Below, one piece after another: positions 9,408 to 45,641 of a stretch of DNA of 53,208 nt; position 1 is the first letter of the stretch, and each line of letters starts with the position of its first letter. This DNA comes from a virus (Duplodnaviria > Heunggongvirae > Uroviricota > Caudoviricetes). The DNA is taken from the IMG/VR virus record IMGVR_UViG_2671181011_000016; one strand, given 5' to 3'. A program made the translations under genes and the position numbers. A model generated the notes under the pieces. It did not search any database, was not told the DNA's origin, and saw nothing but the letters and a program-made list of their open reading frames with translations.

Positions 9408-9460
9408 TTTATCACCTTGTCATTTTGTGATCTCAATCACGCTAAATCATGCCAAAACGG

Positions 9461-9489
9461 TTGATCGCGTTTTTTACAATATGTATATT
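9461..9489 (+). promoter_or_regulatory. sigma70-like promoter of moron cassette A
   Basis: -35 TTGATC, 17-bp spacer, -10 TATATT; about 17 nt upstream of the first + strand gene; an inverted motif variant ATCACAAAATG lies at 9421-9432. Confidence 0.5.
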
Positions 9490-9505
9490 GTACTCAAAAG
9501 GAAGC

Positions 9506-9691
9506 ATGGTTAACAAAATGGCGCGGAGGTGTGAAATGGATGATAAGGTGTGGAGGTTGGCGGTGTTCCTTGCGGATGGCAGGAAAATGACTGTGGCCCT
9601 GTATAAAGATGAAGGCGAGGCACTTACCGACGCGCTCTTACTCGCTGAAGACGAACGCGTTTTGGGGTACAGGATCGAACCTGTCAAATGA
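9506..9691 (+). CDS. hypothetical protein (moron A1)
   Basis: 61 aa; RBS AAAGGAAG before ATG; start chosen among three in-frame ATGs; no recognisable domain. Confidence 0.5.
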   Translation: MVNKMARRCEMDDKVWRLAVFLADGRKMTVALYKDEGEALTDALLLAEDERVLGYRIEPVK

Positions 9692-9705
9692 GAGGTTAAC
9701 GAAAA

Positions 9706-10056
9706 ATGCAAAAATACTCGTTAGAAGTGTGGACCGATAAATGTGAATGGGAGCGCATGGGCCTGTTTGATACATATGTCGAAGCTCGTGATGAAGGTCG
9801 CGAATTGCTACGCTGTTGGTCTAACGCTCGTGATTTTGATATTACTCCGGTCCAAGTACCTGACAAGGTGGAAGAGATGAACCCGAAAGATATTAACTTT
9901 AACGTCAATGTTGAATTTGCAGGCTCTATGGATCAGGCTTGCCCTGGTGAAATCCACGCAAAAGGCTTCCCGGCTGACGATCCTGAGGCAAAACGCGAAT
10001 ACGAAAAAGCGGCGAAAGACTTCTGCATTGATAACCTGGGCGCGTTCGATAAATAA
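9706..10056 (+). CDS. hypothetical acidic protein (moron A2)
   Basis: 116 aa; RBS GAGAGG; rich in Asp/Glu; no recognisable domain. Confidence 0.6.
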   Translation: MQKYSLEVWTDKCEWERMGLFDTYVEARDEGRELLRCWSNARDFDITPVQVPDKVEEMNPKDINFNVNVEFAGSMDQACPGEIHAKGFPADDPEAKREYEKAAKDFCIDNLGAFDK

Positions 10057-10065
10057 GGCGGCAAC

Positions 10066-10314
10066 ATGGGGCGGCGCAATCACGGCGATTATGTGTACAC
10101 GTTGAAACAGGCCGCCCGCCTCGTCGGTTATCATGAGCACGAATTTATTGATTTGCTGATTGAGCGCGGGATACTGTACCAGGTATGTTTAACGCTGTAC
10201 CCGAAAGCAAAATACCTACAGGAAAAGTTATTCATCATCATGACGGATGAAAACCAGGTTAATCATTCATTCGTCACTGATAATGGCGTTAATTATCTGC
10301 GTGATAACTTATAG
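10066..10314 (+). CDS. hypothetical small protein with possible HTH (moron A3)
   Basis: 82 aa; RBS AAGGCGG; segment LKQAARLVGYHEHEFIDLLIERGIL looks helix-turn-helix-like. Confidence 0.5.
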   Translation: MGRRNHGDYVYTLKQAARLVGYHEHEFIDLLIERGILYQVCLTLYPKAKYLQEKLFIIMTDENQVNHSFVTDNGVNYLRDNL

Positions 10315-10322
10315 GACTGTAT

Positions 10323-10526
10323 ATGTTAAAGTACGACGGTCAAAAAATGGTTAGGTTTACGGGTTTTGCTAAAGGTAACAATAGAGAATTAACAGAGTAT
10401 TACAGTTTAAATATTGGTGACGTTTACCGCGTGGAAGAATGTCTGCATTCAATTAATTCTTTAATAATTATAAATAAAGAAAATCAAGGGGTGCTTGTTA
10501 CATTTAACGAAGTGGAGTTACCTTAA
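10323..10526 (+). CDS. hypothetical protein (moron A4)
   Basis: 67 aa; tightly packed after A3; AT-rich codons. Confidence 0.45.
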   Translation: MLKYDGQKMVRFTGFAKGNNRELTEYYSLNIGDVYRVEECLHSINSLIIINKENQGVLVTFNEVELP

Positions 10527-10616
10527 TCAATAAAGCGACGAAGTGATTGGAAATGTTTTGGTAGTGGTTGGCGCGATTGCCATCGTTTATGCCTTTCTGA
10601 GCTAATGGAGTGGATC

Positions 10617-10754
10617 ATGAAAATCGAAGTTTTAGCGCTAATCGCAATGGGCTTGATAGTATTTGGCGTGCACGCTGCGGATTGGGACTGGAGCGCAATA
10701 GCTGAGAATATGGCGCACGCTCACCCGATTGGATTAGTGCACATGAATTTTTAA
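10617..10754 (+). CDS. small hydrophobic protein (moron A5)
   Basis: 45 aa; N-terminal hydrophobic stretch IEVLALIAMGLIVFGVHA (signal/TM-like); RBS GGAGTGG. Confidence 0.45.
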   Translation: MKIEVLALIAMGLIVFGVHAADWDWSAIAENMAHAHPIGLVHMNF

Positions 10755-10795
10755 CACAAACCCCGCTTCGGCGGGGTGTTATAGGTAGGTGAGAT

Positions 10796-10972
10796 ATGAA
10801 AGAGGGTGTGACTTATCAGCATGTGTATACATTTGAAATTTACCGCATATGTGATGGTTATGTTGAAGAGTATAAAATCTTCCCCCGTGGATACTGGAAG
10901 AGAGTTAAGATTTCTGTAAGGTTATTAAAGAAAATGTTTAAAAAAGGATTAATTCAAGAAATTGATTTTTAG
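10796..10972 (+). CDS. hypothetical basic protein (moron A6)
   Basis: 58 aa; RBS AGGTGAG 6 nt upstream of ATG. Confidence 0.5.
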   Translation: MKEGVTYQHVYTFEIYRICDGYVEEYKIFPRGYWKRVKISVRLLKKMFKKGLIQEIDF

Positions 10973-10980
10973 TAAACAAT

Positions 10981-11020
10981 AAAAAAAAGGGGGGGGTACC
11001 CCCTTATTGTTTTATTTGTC
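10981..11020. terminator. rho-independent terminator ending moron cassette A
   Basis: A8 run, G-run / TAC / C-run hairpin, then TTATTGTTTTATTT. Confidence 0.65.
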
Positions 11021-11098
11021 GTGACAACTTTCTATTTCATAGATGATCGTCATTCCTACCGCGATAATAAATACCATTACTAAGCCATCAACCAGCAT
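11012..11098 (-). CDS. micro-ORF encoding a 28-aa hydrophobic peptide
   Basis: MLVDGLVMVFIIAVGMTIIYEIESCHDK; ATG 2 nt after the stop of the upstream gene (TAATATG); single predicted TM helix. Confidence 0.35.
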   Translation of the reverse strand: MLVDGLVMVFIIAVGMTIIYEIESCHDK

Positions 11099-11099
11099 A

Positions 11100-11285
11100 T
11101 TAAACACCCTCAATCAAGAATAAATATTCCTTCCCTTCGTAAGATCTGCACCCCACGTACCCGTCGCCGTAGTCATGCAGATACCAGGTATCCCCTTTAT
11201 CACTCACCACTGTGAGATTATCGATCTGGTAGTCTTCGAATAGCGTAAATGATTCATCGCCAGCTTTAACGCACATCCCGTACAT
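11100..11285 (-). CDS. hypothetical protein coupled downstream of M
   Basis: 61 aa; strong RBS AAAGGGGG; start directly after the M stop. Confidence 0.5.
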   Translation of the reverse strand: MYGMCVKAGDESFTLFEDYQIDNLTVVSDKGDTWYLHDYGDGYVGCRSYEGKEYLFLIEGV

Positions 11286-11295
11286 ATTGCCCCCT

Positions 11296-11649
11296 TTAAT
11301 TCATCACTTGCTCAAACGTCGCGGTTAGCGTGAATACAGGGCCGTCCTTCGTCATGCTCCATTTTCGGCAGACAAAAAGCCTTTGCACCCCATCCATCGA
11401 CGGCGACCAGTAAAAAGCCTCGACAGCGCCGCGCGCCCTCAAGAATGCTTCCGCCTGGATCGCTACATTCCCACCATCGCCGCATCCTGCACTACTGCCT
11501 TTAAAAACCAGGGTGTAACTATCAAGCAACGTGTTAATCCCTTTCGCCTGGCGCTGTTCATAACCATCACCAAGTTTAACGACCGACACATTTGGTTCCC
11601 TGGTCACGCTGTAGCTTCTTTGCGGCGTCCATCTGAAAACTTCTGGCAT
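11296..11649 (-). CDS. M: minor tail protein, lambda M-like
   Basis: 117 aa; matches lambda gpM pattern (FRW.P...GDGY.QR...G.N, KWS......ATFEQV.N). Confidence 0.8.
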   Translation of the reverse strand: MPEVFRWTPQRSYSVTREPNVSVVKLGDGYEQRQAKGINTLLDSYTLVFKGSSAGCGDGGNVAIQAEAFLRARGAVEAFYWSPSMDGVQRLFVCRKWSMTKDGPVFTLTATFEQVMN

Positions 11650-11735
11650 GATTCCCCCTATAAGTTACATATTGCATACATCTTTACGCGCTTCTACGCG
11701 AAAAATGAGAAATTCATCACAAGAATTATAACCAG

Positions 11736-11777
11736 TTTACAAAATGGCTTCACATAGGGCGTGACAAGATGTATATA
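11736..11777 (+). promoter_or_regulatory. sigma70-like promoter of moron cassette B with upstream TTTACAAAATGG motif
   Basis: motif 11736-11747, -35 TTCACA (11749-11754), 17-bp spacer, -10 TATATA (11772-11777). Confidence 0.6.
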
Positions 11778-11818
11778 GAAAGCAAGAAGAAAAAGCAGTA
11801 CCGACAAAGGGGGACAAT

Positions 11819-11974
11819 ATGGAACGCTATGTGGTTGTGATGCTGAACAACGCATTCGAACAGGTGGAGGTGGCGATAGTCAAAGGCTTTGATGACGCAT
11901 TCAAATACGGTCAATTCATGATGAACGCGAAGGAAAATGAGTACCGTGATTTCTTCCTGAAAGTGGTCAACTAA
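11819..11974 (+). CDS. hypothetical protein (moron B1)
   Basis: 51 aa; RBS AAAGGGGGA; MERYVVVMLNNAFEQ... Confidence 0.55.
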   Translation: MERYVVVMLNNAFEQVEVAIVKGFDDAFKYGQFMMNAKENEYRDFFLKVVN

Positions 11975-11992
11975 TGGATTGCGGGGTGGGTT

Positions 11993-12247
11993 ATGAAATT
12001 GGTAGCGATTGGTAAAAATCTGAAAGCACAGAAAAACGCACAGGACCGGATCATCAAAAAGGGCAAGGCTTTATTAAATGCTTTCCTGAGAAAAGAGGCC
12101 ACCCCCAAAAAATTACGCGATGGTTACGGTTATAAATTTGATATTAACCCCGATTGGCGGTTATTCAGCGAAGATTTAAAGGCGTGGTTAATTATCGACC
12201 ATCTGGAATATAACAGACACTGTGGGGTTAAAGGGGCGCATAAGTAA
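11993..12247 (+). CDS. hypothetical basic protein (moron B2)
   Basis: 84 aa; RBS GGGGTGGG; Lys-rich N-terminus. Confidence 0.55.
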   Translation: MKLVAIGKNLKAQKNAQDRIIKKGKALLNAFLRKEATPKKLRDGYGYKFDINPDWRLFSEDLKAWLIIDHLEYNRHCGVKGAHK

Positions 12248-12354
12248 GGCGGGCATGAAGGGCGATAAATTCACCCGGCGGGGGAACTGGAATGTTTGAC
12301 AGGTAATTTTGGATAGGGTGTATCGCGCGGAATGGTTGTTTATAAATACGAAAA

Positions 12355-12388
12355 TAGCCCCGGCATTGTACCGGGGTTTGGTTTATTT
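12355..12388. terminator. bidirectional rho-independent terminator (moron B / tape measure gene)
   Basis: hairpin CCCCGG-CATTGTA-CCGGGG followed by TTTGGTTTATTT; overlaps the TMP stop codon. Confidence 0.65.
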
Positions 12389-14731
12389 GCGGCGAGGTTG
12401 CAACATTCCTCCGGGTCGCTGCGATTCCCTTGCCATCATTTTCATCGCGACGCGTTCCATCGTCTGTTCAAGTCTGCGACTGTCTTCGTCGCTAAATCCG
12501 TTTGTGGTCTGTACGGTGATGTTAACAGGCATATTGATGCCGCCGCCGCTGAAGAGATCACGGCCAGGAATTACCCTACCATTCTCGCCAGGAATCATAT
12601 ACTGACGCCCATTGCTCGTCTGGAATAGCTCTGGGATTCCGTGCTCACCTACGCGATACAGGCTGCCACCATTAACAGAACCACCATTATAACGCCCGCC
12701 ACCAAAGATTGACGTTGCCAGCGACATGATCGCAGAAAGCGCCGCAGCACCAGCCGCCGCCCAGCTACCACCAGTTGACGCCGCAGTCGCCGCCGCCGCT
12801 GGGGCCGCCGCCGCTGCAATCTGGCCTTGTGCCGCTACTGCGCCAGCCGTTGTACTTGCCTGGGTAGCCTTGCTTTGCGTTTCCATCATCAATTGATCTG
12901 CTATCCAGTTAGCGGCAATTTCTGACAGTTTGTTGCCAACGGTGTTAAGTATGCTACTTCCCAGGTTGGCGAAAACCTCGCTTAATGATTGAGTGCCGTT
13001 TAGCAGTCCGGTAAGGGCATTACCCATGCCACCCTTCAGGCCGCTGACGCACGCACCAATCAGGCCGTTTGTTTCGCTTTGCGCCTGCCATTGTTCCCAT
13101 TTCAGATCTCTGATCTGTTGTTCATATTCCAATAGCGCCTGTTTCTGTTGCGCCTCTGTAGCGCCCAAGTCTATCAGCATTTGTTTGCGAACGGCCCATT
13201 CATTTTGTGCCTGCTTGATTGGGTCAATTTCTCCCTTAAGCTGGTCCATCGGGCTGACTATGTGATCCCATTTGTCGCGTAGCTCATCAACAGGGATTTG
13301 CGCCAATTCGTCCTTCAGTTCCTTGCCTATCCCTTTCTGCGCGGCCTTGTACTCAAGTAGGGTTATTTTGCCCTGGGCGAATGCAGCTTCAATGGCCTTG
13401 CCGTTCTCTAATGCGTTGCGCATAGCGGCGGCGTCCTTGTTGTACTGGTCGGACACTTTTATGCCTTCATCACCAAGCCGATCAGCTTCAGATTTCTTGT
13501 CCTTTTTGCCCTTTTTCCCTTTTTTAGGCTTACCGACTGGCTGATCGAATCCGGTGATCTTGCCATCGTCAGCCTCATCCTGTTTCTGCATTAACTCATC
13601 ATAGGCGGCGGTCGCGTTTTTAATGTCGTTTGCAAACGTCATGACTTTGCCGACGGTGGGGCCAAATTTTTTCTCGTTGTTGCTGTTTAGCTCTTCCTTG
13701 CGTTTATCGACGATCTCCTTCATCCACTTGTAACCATCCATTAGCGCTTTGATTGGCGTTACCATTTTGATGATTTCTTCCGCCACCTCACCAGCCTTAA
13801 CAGCAACGTCGTCAAACATGTCGATGAACTCGTTACCAGCGGTTTTAAGTGTGTTGAAACAGGTTGCGGCGAATTTTGCGCCTTTACCCAATCCCTCAAC
13901 GCCACTAGTGATTAAGTCTATTGCTGTTACAACGCCGTCAGATATGCCGAAAAGATCATCAAGCTGTTCGACAAGTCCCATAACCTCAACTTTAAGCTCG
14001 TTGAAGGCCATGCCGGATGTGCGCGGCAACTGTGCGAACTTCTCGTTTGTTTCCTGCGTAGCGGCCTGGATCGCGTTAAGCATCCTTTCAGCCGTGATCT
14101 TACCGTCCAGCATTTCAGCGCGGAACTGACCCATAGACAACCCCATTTGGCGGGCCATTTCCTGTATGATTGTTGGTGTGTTGTCACGTATTGAGTTAAA
14201 TTCCTCAGCCTGCAACACGCCAGCATCAATAGCCTGGCGGAACTGAAGCATGGAGTTTGATAGTTGTTCCGCAGACACGCCGCCCAGGTTGCCGAGTTTT
14301 TGCAGCGTGCTAACCAGGTTGAGTACCTGGCCTTCTGTAGCGGATGTGTTTTTTAGCGATATAGCAAGACCTTGCCACAGGGCACCAGTATCCTTAAGGC
14401 TTTGCCCTGTTTCTTTTGATATATCTTTCAGTCTGTTGAAAACACGCTCCGTGGCCTCCGCTTCACCTGTAAGCAGTTTGATTTTTACGCGAAGCATTTT
14501 CGCTTGCTCCGCCATGTCAATAAACTGGCGTACAGCCTCCGCAGCAAGTAGCAAATGGATAACCCTGGATAGCGCTTTGATTGAAGTCTTAAGCGTGTTC
14601 ACCTGGCGGTCAGCGCGTTTTGCGCCACGCTCGATGCTGTCAAAAGCCTGGTCTGCCTGTCGTTGAGCAACGAGAAGTTGACCAGTTTTTGCATCAACTT
14701 CGTAGTAAATTGTACCTAAACTAGTTGCCAT
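12383..14731 (-). CDS. tail tape measure protein
   Basis: 782 aa, largely alpha-helical and Ala/Gln/Lys-rich with a Gly-rich C-terminal part; sits at the lambda H position upstream of M. Confidence 0.85.
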   Translation of the reverse strand: MATSLGTIYYEVDAKTGQLLVAQRQADQAFDSIERGAKRADRQVNTLKTSIKALSRVIHLLLAAEAVRQFIDMAEQAKMLRVKIKLLTGEAEATERVFNRLKDISKETGQSLKDTGALWQGLAISLKNTSATEGQVLNLVSTLQKLGNLGGVSAEQLSNSMLQFRQAIDAGVLQAEEFNSIRDNTPTIIQEMARQMGLSMGQFRAEMLDGKITAERMLNAIQAATQETNEKFAQLPRTSGMAFNELKVEVMGLVEQLDDLFGISDGVVTAIDLITSGVEGLGKGAKFAATCFNTLKTAGNEFIDMFDDVAVKAGEVAEEIIKMVTPIKALMDGYKWMKEIVDKRKEELNSNNEKKFGPTVGKVMTFANDIKNATAAYDELMQKQDEADDGKITGFDQPVGKPKKGKKGKKDKKSEADRLGDEGIKVSDQYNKDAAAMRNALENGKAIEAAFAQGKITLLEYKAAQKGIGKELKDELAQIPVDELRDKWDHIVSPMDQLKGEIDPIKQAQNEWAVRKQMLIDLGATEAQQKQALLEYEQQIRDLKWEQWQAQSETNGLIGACVSGLKGGMGNALTGLLNGTQSLSEVFANLGSSILNTVGNKLSEIAANWIADQLMMETQSKATQASTTAGAVAAQGQIAAAAAPAAAATAASTGGSWAAAGAAALSAIMSLATSIFGGGRYNGGSVNGGSLYRVGEHGIPELFQTSNGRQYMIPGENGRVIPGRDLFSGGGINMPVNITVQTTNGFSDEDSRRLEQTMERVAMKMMARESQRPGGMLQPRRK

Positions 14732-14768: not shown

Positions 14769-14811
14769 TTATACAAAATGGCTTCACTTCAACGAGTACA
14801 TTTTGTATAAA
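14769..14811 (+). promoter_or_regulatory. sigma70-like promoter of moron cassette C with upstream TTATACAAAATGG motif
   Basis: motif 14769-14781, -35 TTCACT, 17-bp spacer, -10 TATAAA (14806-14811); inverted motif copy CATTTTGTATAA overlaps the -10. Confidence 0.6.
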
Positions 14812-14887
14812 GAAGATAAAGGAAAGGGATAGAACGAAGGGACTTAAAAGGCCGGATTAACCGGAGGAAGCAAAAGAGGATAAGAAA

Positions 14888-14977
14888 ATGAAAAACGTAA
14901 ACTACCGCCCCAACGAACATGAGCGTTATGCCGACTTTATCGAAGAAATGCTGAAAGCACTTAAAAACAAAAACTAA
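14888..14977 (+). CDS. micro-ORF (29 aa) leading moron cassette C
   Basis: MKNVNYRPNEHERYADFIEEMLKALKNKN; RBS AAGAGGA. Confidence 0.4.
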   Translation: MKNVNYRPNEHERYADFIEEMLKALKNKN

Positions 14978-14989
14978 GCGGGGTGAGTT

Positions 14990-15406
14990 ATGAAACGGTT
15001 AATTAGAGCGGCAATGATGGCGGTAATGGTTGGTTTGGCATTCAACGCAAATGCAAACGATGTAATAAATATAAACTGCGATGAAGTAGCAAATAACGTT
15101 GCCGAATACCATAAAATTTTCAAGAAGGAACCCGCAGCCATCAAGGTTTTTTATAAAGCAATTGACAAGCATTTCGAAGGTAAAGCAGTTTATGCAAGAT
15201 GGTTTAATTATGGGCTTGTGAAGGAGGCTGCTGTAGGTGTCGTATTCGAAGGTAACAATGAAATAAGAAACAGAATAGCCAACGAGTGCAACGCTGATAA
15301 AGCCGCATTTGCTGAAAGAATATTTAACGAAGGCGGCGCGGGTGTAAAAAATCATGCTATCGTTGATTTAGGTAACGGCAGAATTGAAATTGTAAGGATT
15401 AGATAA
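14990..15406 (+). CDS. Sec-exported small protein (moron C2)
   Basis: 138 aa; signal peptide MKRLIRAAMMAVMVGLAFNANA with AxA cleavage motif; two Cys in the mature part; RBS GGGGTGAG. Confidence 0.65.
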   Translation: MKRLIRAAMMAVMVGLAFNANANDVININCDEVANNVAEYHKIFKKEPAAIKVFYKAIDKHFEGKAVYARWFNYGLVKEAAVGVVFEGNNEIRNRIANECNADKAAFAERIFNEGGAGVKNHAIVDLGNGRIEIVRIR

Positions 15407-15440
15407 TGAGCACTATCAAAAAGCATCATCGACATATAAC

Positions 15441-15465
15441 GCCCGGTTCTACCGGGCTTTTTCTT
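15441..15465 (+). terminator. rho-independent terminator after moron cassette C
   Basis: hairpin GCCCGG-TTCTA-CCGGGC followed by TTTTTCT; overlaps the 3' end of the convergent minus-strand gene. Confidence 0.65.
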
Positions 15466-43896: not shown

Positions 43897-44187
43897 TTAA
43901 TGATAGCGGACTTTATCCAGGGGTTTTTCCCCTAAATGGCGTGGTTGCGTTGCGTGGTAGTAGCTGCCGCTTTCATTTTCCGTATACCATTTTACTGATC
44001 CTTTGCGACGTTCTTTAATGCTATTTGGTTTGCATCTTTCCTCGTTTGCAAATCGAATAGCTTTATCCACATTGTCTGTTTTATTGATTGCAGGTGATGA
44101 TTTTCTTTCGTTTTCTCTTTTTATCCTTCTGCGTTCCCTGGCATTCATTTTGCTATCACATTTACCATATATAATTGTAACGCTCAT
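43897..44187 (-). CDS. N-like transcription antiterminator (P22 gene 24-like)
   Basis: 96 aa; N-terminus MSVTIIYGK...NARERRRIKRENERK resembles the P22 N start and the arginine-rich motif of N proteins (from memory); first gene downstream of PL and nutL. Confidence 0.55.
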   Translation of the reverse strand: MSVTIIYGKCDSKMNARERRRIKRENERKSSPAINKTDNVDKAIRFANEERCKPNSIKERRKGSVKWYTENESGSYYHATQPRHLGEKPLDKVRYH

Positions 44188-44281: not shown

Positions 44282-44535
44282 GCTTAACATCTTTCAACTA
44301 ATCCCGCAATCATCGCCGTTCCCGGCGTGACCTTGCTCACTCCAAGCAAGCTGACTCGTCGCCTTGCGTGCGGTTTCGTGGGGGATGTAACGCTTTAAAC
44401 ACCCCATGCGCCTTGTTATCAGTGCCGCTTTCGGTCCCCCATCGGGGAGTTACTCCACGGTTGACAAGGTGTTAAGCCTGATTTTTAAAGTGCCAGGAAG
44501 TTGCTTTTGTTACCTGCGCCCTTCCTTTGATTCGC

Positions 44536-44578
44536 AATATACGCCCCGTAAAACACCGAGTCAATCCATTTTGTATAC
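44536..44578 (-). promoter_or_regulatory. candidate PL promoter with upstream GTATACAAAATGG motif
   Basis: minus strand: motif (44566-44578), -35 TTGACT, 17-bp spacer, -10 TATATT (44536-44541). Confidence 0.55.
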
Positions 44579-44654
44579 TTTTTTAAAATATTTTATATGC
44601 CATTGATATTTAAATAATAAATAACGTTTTCTGTTTACGTTTTGGTGTTTTCCA

Positions 44655-44687: not shown

Positions 44688-45335
44688 TTATGGCAGGTTT
44701 ACGATCTTCGCATCAACCACCACGCCTATAATTTTTGATTCTGGATTCATAGGGATTGGCGGATACAGCGGATTCAGCGAACGTAAAAGCCTTTGACCTC
44801 CATCAATAATCAACTGTTTAAACGTCGGTATCTGCCCTTCCTCAAGCTGGGCTATAACCAGTTTGCCGTCAATAGCTGGCGCGTGCGGGTCAACAAGTAT
44901 CATCGTCCCCGCCGGGATGCTCAACCCCTGCGGCGCGTTCATTGATTCACCTTTGGCAACCAGCCAGTAACTATCATCTGAACAAATAACGCTAGTCGTA
45001 ACGTGTGGTAATGCTGATCGCCTTGTGTCATCCATATTGTTTACTGTGTCCTTCCAGTCAATAACCGGGTAACTACCTAAATCACGCGGCGGTGCGGCCT
45101 GAAGTGTATTAGAAACAGAATCATCAATGACCATACCATCATGTGTAACAGTGAACTGCCGACGACCAAGCGCCCGCATAATCCGCGCAATATCTTCAAG
45201 ATTTGGCTCGCGGCGACCGTTCAGCCAGTGTGACAGGCCGCCTTTAGTTATCCCCATGAGATCTGCGAGTGAATCCTGACTCATGCCCTGCGCCCGCATG
45301 AGCTGCTTTGCTAAGTCATACCATTTTGTTTTCAT
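44688..45335 (-). CDS. cI: CI-type prophage repressor (HTH plus S24 LexA-like autopeptidase domain)
   Basis: 215 aa; N-terminal HTH (QDSLADLMGITKGGLSHWLNG); C-terminal GESM Ser motif and TFKQLIIDGGQRLLRSLNPLYP closely resembling the lambda CI C-terminus. Confidence 0.85.
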   Translation of the reverse strand: MKTKWYDLAKQLMRAQGMSQDSLADLMGITKGGLSHWLNGRREPNLEDIARIMRALGRRQFTVTHDGMVIDDSVSNTLQAAPPRDLGSYPVIDWKDTVNNMDDTRRSALPHVTTSVICSDDSYWLVAKGESMNAPQGLSIPAGTMILVDPHAPAIDGKLVIAQLEEGQIPTFKQLIIDGGQRLLRSLNPLYPPIPMNPESKIIGVVVDAKIVNLP

Positions 45336-45641
45336 GTCGCTACCCTATAACCTCAAAAAGTTTGATGCAAGTCACAAAACGTGTATTTTAAGCCTTGATC
45401 TTAAAATTCCATTTTGTAAACTTGCAGACAAGGTAAGGCCATACTTGCAAAGACGCAAGGAAAAAGATAACGGAAGGCACAAAAAGGCACTTACCTTAAG
45501 CTCTTTAAAAATCCGGTGTCGCTGCGAAGCGAAAAACAAATATCACGCAACGGCGGGATCTGTTCAGCGGTCAGTCACTGCTATCTAATGCTAATGGGAT
45601 GCCCGCCCGCGCGTTCACTCTAACCATAGGAGAAAAACAAG
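45336..45641. promoter_or_regulatory. immunity-region intergenic segment (divergent promoters / operators)
   Basis: 306 bp between divergent cI and rightward operon; CTTGC..GCAAG inverted repeats (e.g. CTTGCAAAGACGCAAG); motif copy TTTACAAAATGG at 45409-45420 (minus); exact -10/-35 boxes not resolved. Confidence 0.5.

Follow-up and report, generated by a model that had tools for sequence, protein, structure and literature searches.

A small two-gene cassette lies between the gene for a gpM homologue and the gene for the tape measure protein in the phage genome described here, on the strand opposite to that of the tail operon. The genome was analysed as one stretch of 53,208 nucleotides, which is referred to below as the window. 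In the late operon, the tape measure gene precedes the gpM gene, and in phage lambda the two genes are adjacent. The genes and control elements of the region are the following:

11296..11649, - strand: gpM homologue, minor tail protein, 117 aa (PF05939 E=8.8e-29; phrog_14)
11667..11678, + strand: inverted degenerate copy of a recurrent 12-mer, a conserved block in 41 distinct upstream regions
11706..11721, no strand assigned: CRP-consensus-like palindrome TGAGAAATTCATCACA, with 1 mismatch to TGTGA-N6-TCACA
11736..11747, + strand: recurrent 12-mer TTTACAAAATGG, at -48..-37 of the promoter, nearly invariant in relatives
11749..11777, + strand: predicted sigma-70-type promoter, with -35 TTCACA (11749-11754), a 17-nt spacer and -10 TATATA (11772-11777)
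11819..11974, + strand: orfA, 51 aa, acidic, pI 4.8 (phrog_29810; dN/dS 0.054)
11993..12247, + strand: orfB, 84 aa, basic, pI 9.95, with a predicted RelE/ParE-superfamily toxin fold (Pfam PF24732 ParE_like)
12248..12355, + strand: cargo slot, empty in the window
12356..12388, either strand: predicted bidirectional intrinsic terminator, with its hairpin at 12356-12378
12383..14731, - strand: tape measure protein, 782 aa (PF20155 E=6.5e-49; phrog_1538)

Over about 1.5 kb around the cassette, the window is 87-92% identical to the genomes of seven E. coli phages that belong to the mEp021 group: mEp010, mEp013, mEp021, mEp044, mEp515, mEp554 and MagusPhagus. By its sequence, the window is a mEp021-like (mEpimmI) coliphage. 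The cassette is also carried by prophages in 33 of 5,426 complete E. coli genomes and is chromosomal in every case. The mEpimmI phages were named in 2025 as Nus-dependent non-lambdoid temperate phages, and N-like antitermination has been reported for the group (PMC11893012). The same paper, the only one on the mEpimmI group, contains no discussion of orfA and orfB, and a literature search returned nothing on PF24732 or on either gene. The comparisons described below are based on 52 related loci, comprising 44 viral contigs, two phage records, four complete E. coli genomes, the window and others.

Both genes are real. The + strand open reading frames of 51 and 84 aa that the earlier note had placed between M and the tape measure gene have exactly the coordinates given there. 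They are separated by 18 nt, and each is preceded by a G-rich Shine-Dalgarno sequence (GGGGG at 11809-11813 for orfA, GGGGTGG at 11983-11989 for orfB). Database versions of orfA with 68-89 aa are spurious. The 51-aa protein is taken as the real form because the frame of the N-terminal extension differs between relatives.

The pooled Nei-Gojobori dN/dS over the 52 loci is 0.054 for orfA (dS 0.63; 29 distinct alleles at the nucleotide level, 18 at the protein level) and 0.082 for orfB (dS 1.58; 36 and 29 alleles, respectively). As these ratios are low, both genes are judged to be protein-coding and under strong purifying selection. The reading frames are therefore conserved in related genomes, a point on which the earlier note had made its own reading depend. 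In 48 of the 52 loci, an intact orfA stands next to an intact orfB. Two of the loci (L012, from E. coli PAR, and L038) carry single-base frameshifts within A-runs of orfB next to an intact orfA; they could reflect either true loss of function in a gene that carries a cost or errors in the sequencing of homopolymers. A search of positions 11000-12800 against Rfam gave no match to any RNA family.

The promoter of the cassette agrees with the consensus in five of six positions of the -35 hexamer and in four of six positions of the -10 hexamer, and transcription would start near 11784. With nine of the 12 positions matched and the last T of the -10 hexamer missing, its earlier description as near-consensus was too generous. 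The consensus promoter scan did not call this promoter, because that final T is absent. In the alignment of relatives, TTTACAAAATGGCTTCAC and TGTATA(T/C)AG are conserved in 41 distinct upstream regions, and the 17-nt spacer between the hexamers is variable in sequence and fixed in length. This pattern appears to be the footprint of a working promoter and represents good comparative evidence for one. The spacer contains no operator palindrome that is conserved in this alignment.

The 12-mer TTTACAAAATGG ends one base upstream of the -35 hexamer, so that the recurrent element described earlier as lying directly before the -35 is indeed there. The window contains 11 copies of it with at most one mismatch, compared with 0.71 expected, and none of 100 shuffled sequences reached 11. 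It occupies the identical -48..-37 position in the sigma-70-like promoters at 14770, 30896 and 44566. The 12-mer is putatively either an UP-element-like sequence or a regulator-binding site. It was also considered as a cI operator; the 12-mer is asymmetric, and no operator of the cI-like repressor could be defined from the PL and PRM regions of the window. A reading of the TTTACA within the 12-mer as the -35 hexamer was rejected, there being no -10 at the proper distance. The sequence of the inverted copy at 11667..11678 is ACATATTGCATA in the window; most relatives have ACATTTTGTATA, the reverse complement of TATACAAAATGT.

The palindrome TGAGAAATTCATCACA is located upstream of the 12-mer, with its center at about -70.5 from the predicted start. 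CRP-like sites of the form TGTGA-N6-TCACA are found eight times in the window (at 9426, 11706, 30911, 36903, 40497 and 45361, and also at 25106 and 29902), compared with 1.53 expected, and the tighter palindrome GTGATC-N3-ATCAC has 12 matches against 0.85 expected. Of the eight CRP-like sites, six have a copy of the 12-mer (TWTACAAAATGG) no more than about 100 bp away. At the 30896 promoter, the center of the CRP-like palindrome is near -61. The TGAGAAATTCATCACA site is only moderately conserved; among the 41 related sequences, about 10 have a degraded left half. The arrangement resembles the geometry of class I CRP-dependent promoters, with the A/T-rich 12-mer at the place where the alpha-CTD would bind, a likeness that may serve as a lead only. 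The composite upstream region suggests that expression of the cassette is regulated rather than simply constitutive, and the combination of a CRP-like site with TWTACAAAATGG suggests a composite promoter module used throughout the phage.

At its other end, the cassette is closed by a predicted hairpin with a stem of 8 bp, six of them GC, and a calculated stability of -14 to -15 kcal/mol on either strand. The U-rich tail is UUUGGUUUAUUU on the + strand and the shorter CUAUUUUCGU on the - strand. The hairpin is four bases away from the stop codon of the tape measure gene (12383-12385). It corresponds to the terminator that was earlier proposed to be shared by the cassette and the tape measure gene, and the cassette is supported by its sequence as a self-contained unit with its own promoter and terminator. 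The late tail transcript would have to read through the minus-strand face of this terminator, which fits the N-like antitermination of the group (PMC11893012).

Other units of the window can be compared with this cassette, two of them also within the tail region:

9408-11099: cassette A, G+C 41.9%, which includes a KilAC antirepressor-like gene (10066..10314)
14770-15457: third opposite-strand unit, G+C 38.9%, between the tape measure gene and the DUF6246 gene

The earlier note had ascribed the same design to cassette A, which is true only in part. The promoter of cassette A that was called by the scan, TTGATC-N17-TATATT, is at 9461-9489 and is preceded by a palindrome at 9427-9440. The design of cassette A differs, because its copy of the 12-mer (9510) is downstream of this promoter and not before a -35. 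The design is instead shared by the unit at 14770-15457, in which the 12-mer is followed by TTCACT-N17-TATAAA and, at 15441-15457, by a bidirectional terminator. This unit contains a 138-aa gene (14990..15406) with a signal peptide and no Pfam match.

The same elements are present in the control regions of the phage. A strong promoter within 44520-44580, TTGACT-N17-TATATT, has the 12-mer (44566) at -48..-37, and the 96-aa protein with an arginine-rich motif that is encoded downstream of it (43897..44187, - strand) is probably the N-like antiterminator Gp17 of the mEpimmI phages. A 61-bp imperfect palindrome at 45366-45426 is located upstream of the cI-like repressor gene (44688..45335, - strand). 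It contains two inverted 12-mer-like copies (12-mer at 45409) and an inner ATTTTAAG/CTTAAAAT repeat, and probably represents the region from which PRM and PR are divergently controlled.

Morons of lambdoid phages, such as lambda lom and bor or HK97 gp15, are placed between late genes and have their own promoter and terminator. The earlier note had described the cassette as a moron, and several properties agree with this description: the predicted promoter and terminator that flank it, its position on the opposite strand, and a composition unlike that of its neighbors, the G+C content being 43.1% in the cassette compared with 52.0% in the M gene and 50.9% in the tape measure gene. The presence in some close relatives and absence in others that is expected of a moron was not found. 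The promoter and orfB are present in all 52 related loci, orfA is present in 50 of them, and all seven phages of the group that have been sequenced carry the orfA-orfB unit. This makes the unit a fixed feature of the lineage and not a sporadic moron.

Only the segment downstream of orfB varies. Across 40 loci, the distance between the stop codons of orfB and the tape measure gene ranges from 86 to 1476 nt, and this slot holds between zero and three further + strand genes. In the relatives, the products of these genes are members of two families of small proteins, a membrane protein of 95 aa, an HNH endonuclease and, in mEp021, a zinc-ribbon protein; additional slot genes are annotated in mEp021 and mEp554. 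The window represents the minimal form, with 135 nt between the two stop codons and no open reading frame. Judged by this comparison, the unit is in this lineage a fixed accessory operon that has a cargo slot at its 3' end and carries the structural hallmarks of a moron. A separate variation was noticed at the other end of the cassette. One viral contig with an orfB 100% identical to that of the window (L014, IMGVR_UViG_2695420423_000006) has an insertion of about 650 nt, at its positions 2170-2780, between gpM and the cassette promoter; the insertion is absent in the window.

Residues 19-75 of orfB match PF24732, the ParE-like toxin domain, with 43.3 bits (cutoff 24.4, E=3.7e-11), and RefSeq already names the protein "ParE family toxin-like protein". 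The predicted model of orfB has the small alpha/beta fold of the RelE/ParE proteins, with helices packed on an antiparallel sheet, and matches the toxins RelE, HigB, YafQ and YoeB. The assignment of orfB to the RelE/ParE superfamily is sound. That orfB belongs to a toxin fold went unrecognized in the earlier note, and it is the main clue to function.

In an alignment of 16 divergent PF24732 members, with identities to orfB down to 24-30%, R56 and H70 are the same in every sequence, and K40, L41, G44 and N74 vary very little. The comparison of orfB with E. coli RelE and YoeB by hhalign is not significant (E ~0.1). In its weak register, K40-L41 falls on K43-L44 of RelE, and R56 falls on R61 of RelE and R65 of YoeB. 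Searches of PDB sequences with single sequences and with profiles produced no meaningful match for orfB, nor was it matched in NCBIfam or PADLOC. We infer that orfB more probably belongs to the RNase branch of the superfamily than to the gyrase-poison branch.

When 1.84 billion representatives were searched with an HMM profile of the narrow family, only 10 matches were obtained. A tblastn search with a more central member (P0104) found relatives of orfB in 69 phage records, among them Sortsnevirus, Murrayvirus, Schitoviridae and jumbo phages. These distant relatives likewise match PF24732. One of them immediately precedes a T7-type RNA polymerase gene, another is near a homologue of T7 gp0.4, and others are found within long arrays of small genes. 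No orfA homologue, known antitoxin or conserved partner was found among the neighbors of the distant relatives. No characterized member of PF24732 was found, and the family is spread across many types of phage, virulent as well as temperate. In two phages of about 42 kb (vB-Eco-KMB41 and Sortsne; L058/L059), the PF24732 gene overlaps an upstream gene of 120-125 aa by 4 nt, and the two genes are located just before the lysis cassette. The overlapping gene belongs to no recognized family and might be a partner of another kind in that lineage.

orfA has no match in Pfam, NCBIfam, PADLOC or PDB sequences, and its homologues are found only in mEp021-like phages (an ORFan). The AF2 model of orfA, a single long helix of about 50 residues, was set aside as unreliable, since the alignment is shallow and the sequence is rich in beta-branched residues. 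orfA is dispensable in nature. In two of the related loci (L021 and L031), it has been deleted precisely, so that the orfA leader and Shine-Dalgarno sequence are joined to the start codon of orfB, and the promoter and orfB are intact despite the loss. L031 is 100% identical to a prophage of a cultured strain, E. coli UMNK88. The two orfA-less copies of orfB differ from one another in seven synonymous and two non-synonymous codons, and from their nearest orfA-bearing alleles in 22-27 synonymous and 2-3 non-synonymous codons. As synonymous differences prevail between the two orfA-less copies, orfB has been kept under constraint without orfA. The pairwise distances of orfA and orfB are uncorrelated (r=0.08). 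A single orfA protein is found beside orfB alleles whose identity to the window copy is 63%, 81% and 90%.

It is possible that the two genes form a classical type II module, in which orfA is a labile antitoxin that neutralizes orfB, and which stabilizes the prophage or causes abortive infection upon depletion of orfA. The layout is the canonical one: two small adjacent genes, an acidic protein upstream in the position of the antitoxin, an 18-nt gap and a basic toxin-fold protein downstream, sharing a promoter and a terminator. Nearly all of the loci keep the two genes intact and side by side, the strand opposite to the late genes is compatible with expression in lysogens, and the RefSeq name of orfB points in the same direction. 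The other properties that define such a module were sought in the sequence and are missing. The upstream protein is in no antitoxin or DNA-binding family; the toxin-fold gene is kept, with its promoter and under constraint, in two diverged prophages that have lost the supposed antitoxin, one of them in UMNK88; and the two genes do not co-vary. On these comparisons, the pairing fails three of the four defining in silico tests. The distant relatives of orfB in virulent phages also have no conserved partner, and no PADLOC defense model was matched. We regard a classical module as unlikely.

orfB might, on the other hand, have the fold of a toxin without its toxicity and act as a non-enzymatic decoy or counter-defense factor, orfA being an unrelated accessory gene on the same transcript. 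The targets of such a decoy could be a host antitoxin, the ribosome or a defense protein. This explanation would account for the tolerance of orfB in the absence of orfA and for the independent evolution of the two genes. It agrees as well with the solitary occurrence of the family in virulent phages, within early and accessory regions of the kind in which counter-defense genes cluster, and with the lack of a significant sequence link to catalytically characterized toxins. An arginine and a histidine that are invariant, together with a nearly invariant Lys-Leu pair and asparagine, at identities of 24-30% resemble an active site more than a binding surface, and the interaction partner cannot be named. 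A non-toxic orfB is quite improbable in our judgment. It is hardly conceivable that the reading frames arose by chance in tail-operon spacer DNA that is non-coding and conserved only for late-operon regulation: the genes are small, the function of neither is proven and the family of orfA is an unannotated PHROG only, but dN/dS is 0.05-0.08 at dS of 0.6-1.6, the frames are intact across about 50 diverged loci, the Pfam match of orfB exceeds the curated cutoff, Shine-Dalgarno sequences precede both genes, and the region contains no Rfam family.

The explanation that we prefer is that of a transcription unit with a conditionally acting toxin-fold effector, which has the layout of a toxin-antitoxin operon and is not a classical addiction module; it has, in our estimate, about an even chance of being correct. 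An effector that acts conditionally and alone, with an optional lineage-specific partner, is ranked above the classical addiction module because orfA belongs to no family, is deleted in L021 and L031, does not co-vary with orfB, and has no counterpart beside the solitary relatives. The 18-nt spacing, the pairing of an acidic with a basic protein and the 48 intact pairs among 52 loci speak against this preference, as they would also be expected of a genuine toxin-antitoxin pair, and so do the sequence profiles, which fall short of significance against RelE and YoeB (hhalign E ~0.1), the lack of a match among PDB sequences, and the frameshifts in L012 and L038, which could mean that orfB is costly.

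Under the preferred explanation, the cassette would be an independent accessory transcription unit that has become fixed at the junction of the tape measure and gpM genes in the mEp021-like (mEpimmI) coliphages. The host RNA polymerase would start near 11784 from a sigma-70 promoter of moderate strength, whose upstream region, with the 12-mer at -48..-37 and the CRP-like palindrome at about -70, seems to recur at other promoters of the phage that serve early and accessory genes. The transcript would cover orfA and orfB and end at the bidirectional hairpin beside the tape measure stop codon, and late tail transcription would pass through this hairpin by antitermination. orfB, a small basic protein with the predicted RelE/ParE fold, would be the functional core of the unit. 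Its activity is most likely the inhibition of translation by mRNA cleavage of the RelE/YoeB/HigB type and less likely gyrase poisoning of the ParE type. It may act conditionally, its target being either the host that is taken over or a rival phage. orfA would be an acidic partner specific to this lineage, which may temper orfB and is not an obligatory antidote.

A wider proposal, possible and rather unlikely, can be added to the preferred explanation. PF24732 might be a phage-specific clade of RelE-like effectors that are independent of antitoxins, and in mEpimmI prophages their expression might be tied to host physiology through the CRP-like site at a class-I distance and TWTACAAAATGG. If so, PF24732 effectors would serve host takeover or inter-phage warfare in virulent (T7-like, N4-like and jumbo) and in temperate phages alike, and the module of a CRP-like site and TWTACAAAATGG would also precede cI, the N-like gene and other accessory genes.

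Public annotation already names the family of orfB. The main additions made here are the recognition of orfB as a RelE/ParE-fold protein of a phage-wide family and the failure of the apparent toxin-antitoxin pairing in most of the sequence tests; the interest lies in the question of a solitary toxin and in the shared promoter grammar. Two hypothetical genes, fixed in a gut-prevalent and recently described family of coliphages, receive a name that bears on their function. The prophages that lack orfA are a natural experiment, which indicates that an operon with the appearance of a toxin-antitoxin pair need not be an addiction module and that annotation from layout only is risky. Phage mEp021 offers a tractable system in which the role of a solitary RelE/ParE-fold protein can be studied, and the shared promoter grammar may explain how the accessory genes of the phage are coordinated.

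The cassette can be compared with several known systems. It resembles the morons of lambdoid phages in having its own predicted promoter and terminator, in its position on the opposite strand, in its low G+C content and in its variable cargo slot, and it is inserted between genes that are adjacent in lambda. It is unlike them in that the head of the cassette is present in every relative examined and is thus core-like rather than sporadic.

With RelE, YoeB, YafQ and HigB, which are ribosome-dependent mRNA endonucleases, orfB has no significant sequence similarity. Unlike the systems to which these toxins belong, orfB is accompanied by no antitoxin of the RelB, YefM, DinJ or HigA type, and the gene upstream of it is naturally dispensable. 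The PaaR2-PaaA2-ParE2 system of E. coli O157 is prophage-borne and belongs to the ParE gyrase-poison family (PDB 5czf/5cw7). With the ParE gyrase poisons, including this system, orfB shares the Pfam name (ParE_like), the superfamily and the location in a prophage, and orfA is comparable to PaaA2, a small partner without a DNA-binding domain.

RegB of phage T4 is an endoribonuclease with the RelE/YoeB fold that is made early by a virulent phage which has no antitoxin for it. RegB is larger than orfB and specific for GGAG, whereas orfB is encoded in the tail region of a temperate phage. RegB constitutes a precedent for a solitary early effector with the RelE fold, and as such it matches the solitary PF24732 genes located beside the T7-type RNA polymerase gene and the gp0.4 homologue.
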